From Escherichia coli (GTDB taxonomy: Bacteria; Pseudomonadota; Gammaproteobacteria; Enterobacterales; Enterobacteriaceae), in the NCBI RefSeq assembly GCF_003018255.1, contig NZ_CP027440.1: a stretch of 64,000 nucleotides of DNA; one strand, written 5' to 3'. Within the stretch, counting starts at the first letter, position 1; every line of letters starts with the position of its first letter. Both the position numbers and the translations under genes were made by a program. Under the pieces are notes generated by a model, which worked only from the letters and a program-made list of their open reading frames with translations, had not been told where the DNA came from and ran no database searches. This document shows positions 32,334 through 52,751 of this stretch, piece by piece.

Positions 32334-32924
32334 TTACTGGTAAGTAATGGTATATGCTGAGTTAGTTTTTACATAACCGGCAGTTGCTGCTTTGCTTGCA
32401 TCAGCACGAACATAGGATGCTTTAAAATCGTAGGTTGCAGTTTTAGACGTTGCATCCAGAGTTTTGCTGTAAACATCACCCGGATTATTAACCTGAACCT
32501 GCTTAATAGTGGAACCTTCAATATTATGCAGGGCAATATTCACACCATCAGATGGATTATTGATAGACATATCGTTATTCAGAGTACCTTTGCTATTGCT
32601 AAAGAACACGGAACCGAAAGTCATTTTTGCAGTAGTACCCGGAGCCGGGTTAGCTTTGCTGCAGTCAATAGTAATGCTGAATGGCTTAGCTTTAGCACCT
32701 ACGGTGGTATCCAGTACACCATCGGTGATTTCAGCAACAGTAGCGGTTTGCAGCAGGATCAAACCATCTTTGTTACCGCCATCAACACGAGCTTCACAGG
32801 TGTTATCAACGACCAGGCCGCTAATATTTAACTGACCACCGTCCATATCGTTAGCAGCAAATGCAGTACCAGCAGCCATTGCCAACATAATACCAGACAG
32901 CGCAAAACCTAATTTTTTAGACAT
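32334..32924 (-). CDS. yadN: major fimbrial subunit-like protein
   Basis: [32 protein letters not shown]...; first gene of the yad operon; ORF-track extension rejected. Confidence 0.88.
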
Positions 32925-33101
32925 AAAAATCCTTGAATAATATTCCATAGAGAGATAACCGCACCGCATGACGATAAGAGTCTGCTGCAATGCTGCGTAA
33001 CAAAATCGTTACTGTGTTAATGATGTTTGTCTGTTGTTTACCAACTATTACATTCATTCATCATCGGGATGGCTATTTTGCATAATGTGATAGCATATGC
33101 A

Positions 33102-33142
33102 ATTTAATTTTACTAAAAATAAAAGTTAGTAAAATTAAATTT
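33102..33142. promoter_or_regulatory. perfect 16-bp inverted repeat (AATTTAATTTTACTAA-N9-TTAGTAAAATTAAATT) in AT-rich yad operon upstream region
   Basis: read directly from sequence; lies ~180-220 bp upstream of yadN start and ~145 bp downstream of folK stop. Confidence 0.5.
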
Positions 33143-33285
33143 GAAAGCTAAGAGGGATAGTGTATGGCGTGAGAATTACGGGAAGGTATATTATATTTTC
33201 TAAAATTTTATTTATCTTAATGATATTGTTTTGGCAATAACTTGAGGTTGTTTTCAGAATATATTTATATTCACACGAATAATAA

Positions 33286-33765
33286 TTACCACTTATCTAA
33301 TTCATTAAAGCCTTTTGCCTGTAGAGCTTCAACTAATGATAAGCCATCAGGAAATAGCAATTCCGGCGCAATTTCAAACAGTGGCCACAGCATAAAGCCG
33401 CGATTTTTCATATCGTAGTGCGGAACGGTCAGACGTTCGGTATTTATTACTTCATTACCAAACAGCATGATGTCGAGATCCAGCGTGCGCGGTCCCCAGC
33501 GTTCAGCTTTACGGACGCGACCTTGCTGCAATTCGATACGCTGTGTGTGATTGAGTAGCTCTTCAGGGGCAAGAGTGGTTTTCAGCGCGACGGCTGCATT
33601 TAAGTAATCGGGTTGATCTTGCGGCCCCAGCGGTGGGGTGCGGTAAAACGAAGAAACAGCAAGAATGCGGCTTTCTGGAATATCGCCTAATGCTTTCAGG
33701 GCAGCATTGACCTGCTCCAGCGGAGAGGCCAGATTGCTGCCGATGGCAATATACGCCACTGTCAT
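33286..33765 (-). CDS. folK: 2-amino-4-hydroxy-6-hydroxymethyldihydropteridine pyrophosphokinase
   Basis: [61 protein letters not shown]... Confidence 0.95.
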
Positions 33766-43192: not shown

Positions 43193-43208
43193 CGTCTAAG
43201 CGTGACAT

Positions 43209-43240
43209 ACCGGATGGCGAGTAGCCATCCGGTAAAATAA
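43209..43240 (+). terminator. hairpin ACCGGATGGC-GAGTA-GCCATCCGGT downstream of mrcB
   Basis: perfect 10-bp stem; followed by AAAATAA rather than a T-run, so strength uncertain. Confidence 0.45.
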
Positions 43241-52705: not shown

Positions 52706-52717
52706 TCTGTTGTTCAT

Positions 52718-52740
52718 GTGCCGGATAAACTATCCGGCAC
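52718..52740. terminator. hairpin GTGCCGGATA-AAC-TATCCGGCAC between convergent erpA and yadS
   Basis: perfect 10-bp stem read from sequence. Confidence 0.55.
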
Positions 52741-52751
52741 ATCTTCTCTCT

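Follow-up and report, generated by a model that had tools for sequence, protein, structure and literature searches.

A conserved AT-rich inverted repeat between folK and yadN in Escherichia coli, a possible upstream element of the yadN fimbrial promoter

Introduction

Why does a long, perfect palindrome stand in front of the yad fimbrial operon of Escherichia coli? The window analyzed here, a stretch of 64,000 nucleotides from E. coli contig NZ_CP027440.1 (assembly GCF_003018255.1), carries a perfect inverted repeat, referred to below as the dyad, in the spacer between folK and yadN, the gene for the major Yad fimbrial subunit. A preliminary description of this DNA, made from the sequence alone, proposed that the repeat could bind a dimeric regulator, extrude as a cruciform or act as a weak bidirectional terminator. 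We compared the site across E. coli alleles and related species and set it beside the published work on the yad promoter. The reading that we favor, with a rough probability of 0.4, is that the dyad acts at the DNA level as an AT-rich, dyad-symmetric upstream element of the yadN promoter and is probably a preferred contact for the silencer H-NS or for an anti-silencer. The dyad is an uncharacterized member of a familiar class of cis-elements, at a locus whose regulation is already known.

Results

A perfect inverted repeat in the folK-yadN spacer

The dyad consists of AATTTAATTTTACTAA, AAATAAAAG and TTAGTAAAATTAAATT in plus-strand letters, and its two arms are complementary at 16 of 16 positions. 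The perfect 16+9+16 palindrome that had been described was reproduced, but its position had to be moved one base to the left: it had been placed at 33102-33142, and the arms lie at 33101-33116 and 33126-33141. They cannot be extended because C33100 stands opposite T33142. The yadN-side arm (33101..33116), which is promoter-proximal in the direction of transcription, and the folK-side arm (33126..33141) have mean column identities of 0.87 and 0.84, respectively, across the allele families described below. The loop of 9 nt between them (33117..33125) is fixed in length and free in sequence.

With loops of up to 20 nt allowed, no perfect inverted repeat of the window is longer than the dyad; the runner-up has arms of 12 bp and is G+C-rich. 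In 3000 dinucleotide-preserving shuffles of the 361-bp spacer, an arm of 13 bp was reached once and one of 14 bp never. The predicted sense-strand RNA hairpin has a folding energy of -16.2 kcal/mol (z = -6.9 against shuffled sequence), and the corresponding single-strand DNA hairpin -10.8 kcal/mol (z = -5.7). The dyad is non-random. Further copies of the arm, or of its core TTTACTWA-N-TWAGTAAA, were not found elsewhere in the 64-kb window. The repeat occupies one place per genome in the 5,426 complete E. coli genomes that formed our population sample, which is not the pattern of a repeated or mobile element such as a repetitive extragenic palindrome (REP), a miniature inverted-repeat transposable element (MITE) or the end of an insertion sequence (IS). 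A scan against Rfam 15 at a permissive E-value gave no family at the gathering threshold, the best matches being eukaryotic small nucleolar RNA models far below it.

The other perfect inverted repeats of the window have arms of 11-12 bp and are all G+C-rich (5086-5114, 5901-5929, 10379-10406, 43208-43234 and 52716-52742). The one at 5086-5114 is bordered by A6 and T6 and resembles a bidirectional intrinsic terminator.

Allele families of the spacer and the state of the dyad

We matched the 5' end of yadN in 4,070 of the 5,426 genomes, and the spacer of the window could be aligned in only 559. Within E. coli, at least seven deeply divergent allele families make up the mosaic of the folK-yadN spacer, and about 50% of positions differ between families. 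The allele of the window (at least 99% identical) was found in 76 genomes, including many poultry strains, among them O78:H4 avian pathogenic E. coli (APEC). The B2-type allele, carried by CFT073, UTI89, Nissle and 536, is about 82-85% identical to that of the window and was found in about 480 genomes. The commonest allele is the B1-type (about 1,400 genomes), and the K-12-type is present in about 1,300. The alleles of the sequence type 131 (ST131), SCU313 and O6:H16 types together account for about 1,230 genomes, E57-like alleles for several hundred and 2CC-type alleles for about 71. A scan of metagenomes for spacer alleles added few new ones. About five islands of the spacer are conserved: the ribosome-binding-site region, a block comprising the 5' untranslated region and the -10 element, the dyad arms, the sequence GTATGG and a folK-proximal block.

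The 41-bp dyad is free of gaps in all families but the ST131-like one, while its flanks carry insertions or deletions of 10-11 bp, and the frame TTTAC-N15-GTAAA is constant in the nine haplotypes compared. The half-site AANTTAANTTTNCTNAA is conserved as an inverted pair at fixed spacing, the arrangement expected of a dyad-symmetric operator, and is lost in ST131-type alleles. Complementarity between the arms varied among alleles. It is complete in the window and in O170:H18 (16/16), in E2348/69 and Z1323 (16/16, with G:C in place of T:A at arm position 3) and in 2CC (17/17, around an unrelated loop, ATCAGGG). CFT073 and UTI89 pair at 15/16, with a T.C mismatch at position 3, and E57 at 16/17, with a perfect core of 15 bp. 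The K-12 arms pair at 14/17 (perfect core of 11 bp, 3-nt loop) and those of B1 at 13/17 (core of 7 bp). In ST131-like alleles the yadN-side arm has been removed by a 10-bp deletion and a CTTAA or ACTTAA-N7-TTAAG(T) core remains, so that about 1,230 genomes, those with ST131- and SCU313-type alleles, have a dyad cut to a core of 5-6 bp. In the B2-type family, the compensated form of E2348 was found in 12 genomes and 467 others matched at 1-3 mismatches over a 64-nt query, mostly in the CFT073 form.

The predicted hairpin is significant (z < -4) in the window, CFT073, E2348, 2CC, E57 and K-12 alleles and not significant in B1 (z = -0.8) or ST131 (z = 0.1), and about half of the genomes carrying the locus are without a significant hairpin. 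Conservation of the dyad across yad loci, which the preliminary description had named as the check on its proposal, was therefore borne out in part: the window, B2, K-12, E57 and 2CC alleles retain the dyad through compensatory changes, and it has decayed in B1 and shrunk to its short core in ST131 and SCU313.

A species-level scan of genomes with YadN gave one locus, in E. coli, and other species were reached by a protein search and by contig look-ups. E. fergusonii has the folK-side arm only, with no inverted repeat of 7 bp or longer, and the spacers of E. albertii and Pseudocitrobacter corydidari (505-508 bp) are unrelated and have no dyad. E. albertii (look-up L070, 996-1500) and P. corydidari (L071, 993-1500) share with E. 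coli the layout of pcnB, folK, a spacer and a fimbrial operon, and the operon is a different chaperone-usher operon, whose major subunit is about 50-54% identical to YadN. This suggested that the site beside folK holds a replaceable fimbrial cassette.

We also noted that the ST131-type alleles (look-up L007, about 1700-1760, compared with L009) contain a long run of G on the plus strand, a C run on the sense strand. A length variant of 5 bp lies near this run, with one form in 134 genomes and the other in 419.

Constraint on the arms

The arms of the window differ from those of the K-12, B1, 2CC and E57 alleles at 4-7 of 32 positions (12-22%), compared with 143-149 of 271 positions (about 54%) in the rest of the spacer. 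The difference between arms and spacer gave Fisher p values of 1e-4 for the window against K-12 and 3e-6 for the window against 2CC. The loop diverges by 44-67% in the same comparisons with the window and by 33-89% between allele families. Among 351 sliding windows of 16 columns along the spacer alignment, the yadN-side arm ranks 13th, and the arms are exceeded in conservation by two parts of the spacer only, the ribosome-binding-site region and the folK-proximal block. The slow divergence of the arms between lineages points to purifying selection, since template switching alone would not slow it.

Pairing between the arms has been retained as well. In the nine haplotypes, 87% of the cells of the arm alignment are paired, against 21-63% when the partner columns are shifted by 1-3 positions, and pairing is equal on the two strands (87.1% and 86.5%). 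Changes on both sides occurred at three pairs, twice from T:A to A:T and once from T:A to G:C. The covariation score was 0.111, compared with 0.053 in shuffles, and was matched by 2 of 500 shuffles, with agreement on the opposite strand. The window and 2CC alleles, which are both perfect, differ at four arm positions that form exactly two complementary pairs, an outcome with a chance probability of 3e-3, or 4e-4 when the substituted base is also counted. The number of independent covariation events is small because both T:A/A:T flips split the same two deep clades. Apparent paired insertions and deletions between the window-type and K-12-type arms vanished in an ungapped alignment, where they are really an A:T to T:A flip.

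Arm position 3 is simply variable, with three states on each side and pairing in 4 of 9 haplotypes. The mismatches of the imperfect alleles are all transversions (A.G, T.C and A.A) that keep the A+T content, and G-U wobble pairs are absent on either strand. A constraint at the level of DNA fits this pattern better than one at the level of RNA. Overall, the arms are conserved and their complementarity has been kept through paired changes.

The yadN promoter region and H-NS

We searched for promoters with our own position-weight scan of 11 allele families. One sense-strand, sigma-70-like -35/-10 pair, and no other promoter-like site, recurred at a fixed position of the alignment among the top matches of 10 families, the exception being E2348. 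In the window it comprises the candidate -35 element TTGCAT (33097..33102, minus strand), which overlaps the last 2 bases of the dyad and reads TTGTTC in K-12 and TGGATA in ST131, and the candidate -10 element CAAAAT (33075..33080, minus strand), 16 nt past the -35, which reads CACAAT in K-12 and B1 and TACATT in ST131. E. fergusonii shares the -10 block (as CACAAT), and the candidate site lies within both published active reporter fragments. If the predicted promoter is right, the dyad would cover about -33 to -73, counted from its predicted start, and touch the -35 element. From these data we infer both the assignment of this promoter to yadN and a role for the dyad as a protein-binding site.

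A published Pyad-lux fragment of CFT073, set by the primers CTTAATTTTTTAAAGTTAATTTTAC and AAAGCAGATAACAGCATTGCATGATG (PMC13245861), extends from 12 bp upstream of the dyad to 26 nt short of the ATG. Its output, about 200 units in the wild type, rose to about 19,000-20,000 in an hns mutant and was about 230-370 with hns in trans, and the fragment responded to serum (PMC13245861). Dyad-containing fragments carry an H-NS-repressed promoter, and this roughly 100-fold repression agrees with the statement of the preliminary description that cryptic chaperone-usher operons are typically silenced by H-NS. Serum is reported to induce yad 15-fold in CFT073 and 4-fold in the ST131 strain EC958, in which yad is still H-NS-repressed. 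H-NS binding at yadN has been reported in K-12, in three data sets, and in CFT073, and over-production of SlyA raised yadN 2.4-fold (PMC5797941 for the K-12 and SlyA data). The K-12 spacer is also catalogued as an H-NS-associated "promoter island" (PMC3661553).

Green fluorescent protein (GFP) fusions of K-12 and B1-type alleles begin in the middle of the dyad (TTAATTTTGAATTAAG[T/A]AAATTTAA) and are active, with differing outputs. The two sets of constructs place a promoter at or downstream of the dyad, and on a plasmid basal activity does not require the dyad to be intact. In agreement with the GFP reporters, an expression association study found that natural alleles of the upstream region differ in yadN expression. 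Yad expression has also been reported to respond to temperature and oxygen. LmiA was rejected as a regulator of this site, as it is reported not to bind the yadN promoter, and a Reg-Seq preprint includes yadN among its targets without a yadN result. The literature that we found on yad does not mention a palindrome or inverted repeat at this site.

At the level of the region, the site has the properties of an H-NS nucleation zone: it is AT-rich (25% G+C) and lies within an H-NS-bound, H-NS-repressed region. The end of each arm, TTAAATT, agrees by eye at 7 of 10 positions with the 10-bp high-affinity H-NS motif TCG(T/A)T(A/T)AATT, a weak match in AT-rich DNA.

At 33190-33195 (minus strand), upstream of the dyad, a perfect -10 element, TATAAT, is accompanied by a weak -35, and its ATAAT is present in nearly all alleles. 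A second, distal yadN promoter at this position is possible and, if used, would transcribe the dyad; the site is outside both published reporter fragments. On the plus strand, three promoter-like sites (33169-33197, 33231-33260 and 33242-33271) point into folK in antisense, against 2.5 expected from shuffles, and they are consistent with the "promoter island" label of the spacer.

Gene context of the spacer

The genes are on the minus strand in the order pcnB, folK, spacer (32925-33285), yadN, yadV and htrE. The very AT-rich setting of about 360 bp that had been described was confirmed, with a spacer of 361 bp, an overall G+C content of 29.6% and local values of 22-29%, and about 25% around the dyad. 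The folK gene (33286..33765, minus strand; RefSeq annotation of an identical genome) has its stop codon 145 nt upstream of the dyad. The yadN gene (32334..32924, minus strand; Pfam PF00419) encodes a product 99% identical to an E. coli fimbrial protein. Its ATG is at 32924, 177-217 nt downstream of the dyad (177 nt from the end of the dyad).

Several further features lie in the spacer or at its border. The block TTTTCAGAATATATTTATATTC at 33251-33272, directly past the folK stop codon, is kept in every allele and holds the small palindrome GAATATA-AA-TATATTC (33257-33272). An upstream open reading frame of 46 codons (32917-33057, minus strand) ends 4 nt beyond the yadN ATG. We rejected it as a coupling element: it occurs only in the window and B2-type alleles and is absent in K-12, B1, 2CC, E57 and ST131, and because of this confinement it is probably non-functional. 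In B2-type alleles (look-up L010, spacer positions 38-70), the yadN leader contains a 9-bp inverted repeat, GCATTGCAT-N15-ATGCAATGC, which is partial in the window. In two unrelated strains (look-ups L006, 603-1300, and L009, 749-1446), of which one has a 2CC-type allele and the other an ST131-type allele, the insertion sequence IS1 has inserted right at the beginning of yadN, which cuts the gene off from its promoter region.

Discussion

The question raised by the locus is what the conserved arms are for. In the reading that we favor, two inverted copies of AANTTAANTTTNCTNAA at fixed spacing would be offered to proteins that bind AT-rich DNA. The dyad would be a preferred nucleation or bridging site of H-NS and would cover the -35 and the upstream promoter (UP) element region. 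On induction, the alpha subunits of RNA polymerase or anti-silencers of the SlyA/LeuO type would compete with it for this DNA. That the palindrome is perfect in the rare allele of the window is probably incidental, the outcome of template-switch correction on a sequence under constraint, and not itself what has been selected. The proposal that the dyad is a plausible control element is supported, short of proof, by conserved arms, by a promoter-like site of conserved position that the dyad abuts and by an H-NS-repressed fragment.

Such an element has counterparts. The H-NS-silenced, cryptic chaperone-usher promoters (yad, elf, sfm and yeh) share the AT-rich spacer, strong repression by H-NS and, for yadN, the increase caused by SlyA. 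H-NS, SlyA and LeuO sites differ from the dyad in that H-NS sites are not normally long, perfect palindromes, and dyad-less alleles are still silenced. UP elements, which lie at -40 to -60 and are contacted by the C-terminal domain of the alpha subunit, match the dyad in position and in having a T-tract followed by an A-tract on the sense strand (TTTTATTTTTAGTAAAA); however, they are not palindromic, and the dyad matches their consensus only in part.

A number of observations weigh against a role as a protein-bound upstream element. A hairpin or templated mutation would be expected to leave symmetric compensatory changes, and the same change in both half-sites would not rescue binding by a sequence-specific dimer. 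Comparisons with the motifs of Lrp, CRP, FNR, ArcA, OmpR and CpxR assigned no specific regulator to the dyad. A SlyA site was rejected on spacing, as the arms read TTA-N7-TAA and the SlyA motif is TTA-N6-TAA (PMC5797941). Perfect dyads of at least 16 bp occur in only about 160 genomes (about 3%). The responses of EC958, whose allele has only the 5-6 bp core, show that the full dyad is not needed for H-NS repression or serum induction, and the GFP fusions starting in the middle of the dyad are still active. Finally, the candidate yadN promoter is weak (scores of 3.7-5.6) and has no -11 A in E2348/69, and a stricter promoter scan of 32800-33400 returned zero minus-strand sites.

An alternative that needs no function for the palindrome is that of a neutral quasipalindrome, an AT-rich imperfect repeat perfected by template switching during replication. 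We regard it as possible but rather unlikely. It accounts well for the paired changes and for the scattered distribution of perfect alleles, and it is consistent with the series of alleles at this one site, which runs from perfect (window, E2348, Z1323 and 2CC) through E57, CFT073 and K-12 to the decayed B1 form and the 5-bp core of ST131, and with the many genomes that lack a significant hairpin. The correction of quasipalindromes in this way is established in E. coli (PMC7202029) and has been put forward to account for the surplus of perfect inverted repeats, and for their conservation, in Proteobacteria (PMC5941160). As at a quasipalindrome hotspot, less and more complementary forms coexist, the T.C form of CFT073 in 467 genomes and the G:C form of E2348 in 12, and the window and 2CC alleles are both perfect. 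The change of the T.C mismatch in the common CFT073 form to a G:C pair in E2348 is the signature of a templated event, but the two forms also differ by a C to G substitution immediately beyond the arm, where the other arm would have templated a different base, and a single template switch was rejected for this comparison. The site shares with the thyA hotspot and the lacZ quasipalindrome reporters of E. coli a series from imperfect to perfect with changes that raise complementarity; it differs from them in that the arms are also conserved between lineages, which a mutational mechanism does not predict. Templated correction homogenizes the two arms and should not reduce divergence between lineages, but divergence in the arms is 2-4 times lower than at the other spacer positions (Fisher p of 1e-4 to 3e-6), and in B1 the arm sequence stays conserved though complementarity has decayed. 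It is distinctly unlikely, in our judgment, that the dyad is a structure-dependent switch in which a hairpin, a cruciform or a symmetric bridge site for a nucleoid protein would set the tightness of Yad silencing. If it were, differences in Yad inducibility, such as the reported 15-fold and 4-fold serum induction in CFT073 and EC958, would be explained by how perfect each allele is: APEC-, E2348- and 2CC-type alleles have the perfect dyad, CFT073 has a single mismatch, B1 a decayed form and ST131 none. Less probable still, and very unlikely overall, is a supercoiling sensor, in which the palindrome would extrude as a cruciform under negative supercoiling and reshape the yadN promoter with temperature, osmolarity and oxygen. 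The perfect AT-rich palindrome in a flank of about 25% G+C, its stable single-strand DNA hairpin, the complementarity held by paired changes and the reported responses of Yad to temperature and oxygen would all suit such a sensor, but the 9-nt central spacer disfavors extrusion, many alleles are imperfect and the environmental responses are already explained by H-NS alone. An invertible promoter switch was rejected. Switches of the fimS type also have inverted repeats upstream of a fimbrial operon, but theirs enclose a promoter segment of about 300 bp, whereas the repeats here enclose 9 nt; the neighboring genes are folK and yadN, with no recombinase gene adjacent, and Yad is reported not to be phase-variable.

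The dyad could instead act in RNA, as a hairpin in the 3' untranslated region of pcnB-folK that would serve as a pause site or 3'-end protector in a Rho-dependent zone insulating yadN from folK. A C-rich, G-poor tract resembling a Rho utilization (rut) site lies at 33122..33199 (minus strand), with C=20 and G=3 over its best 78 nt and a plus-strand GC skew of +0.6, and it runs into the folK-side arm and loop. Read from 33199 to 33122, this untranslated tract of about 80 nt has the composition of a Rho-dependent terminator. C exceeds G here in 12 of 12 alleles examined and also downstream of folK in E. fergusonii, E. albertii and Pseudocitrobacter, and the segment from the dyad to yadN is balanced (C=33, G=32). 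The RNA hairpin is stable (-12 to -16 kcal/mol, z of about -6 to -7), and in K-12 an increase of yadN has been reported with bicyclomycin, which inhibits Rho. No intrinsic terminator was found in 32800-33400, so transcription of pcnB-folK probably ends by Rho within the spacer. The arrangement resembles Rho-dependent terminators with a rut site and a hairpin, in which a C-rich untranslated tract is followed by a stable stem-loop with no intrinsic terminator nearby, but here many alleles keep the tract without the hairpin. Since the tract is kept in ST131-type alleles and in species without the hairpin, the hairpin is not a necessary partner of it. The lack of G-U wobble intermediates and the equal pairing on both strands also argue against an RNA element, the known coupling of Rho to silencing by H-NS accounts just as well for the effect of bicyclomycin, and the Term-seq supplements that we searched have no entry for folK or yadN. 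On balance we consider this explanation unlikely. The weak bidirectional intrinsic terminator suggested in the preliminary description did not hold up and is extremely improbable. A stable hairpin 145 nt downstream of the folK stop codon would be suitably placed, but only 1 of the 16 stem pairs is G-C, the stem continues with GCATATGC on the sense strand and TGAAAGCT on the other, so that neither strand has a T-run, and a terminator scan found 0 sites in 32800-33400. K-12-type alleles have a better terminator-like hairpin right past the folK stop codon, a 10-bp stem TATTTATATT-CGC-AATATAAATA followed by TTTTCT on the sense strand, which looks like a folK terminator.

Among these explanations we favor the DNA-level upstream element, and the locus offers ways to examine it. 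Both published reporter constructs happen to start at or within the dyad, which provides concrete targets for mutagenesis. If the palindrome is neutral, it would be a clean natural case of quasipalindrome correction in a wild bacterial population. Yad fimbriae are induced by serum and have recently been linked to tissue colonization by extraintestinal pathogenic E. coli in bloodstream infection, and the natural allelic series of the dyad could show whether cis variation tunes fimbrial expression between pathotypes.

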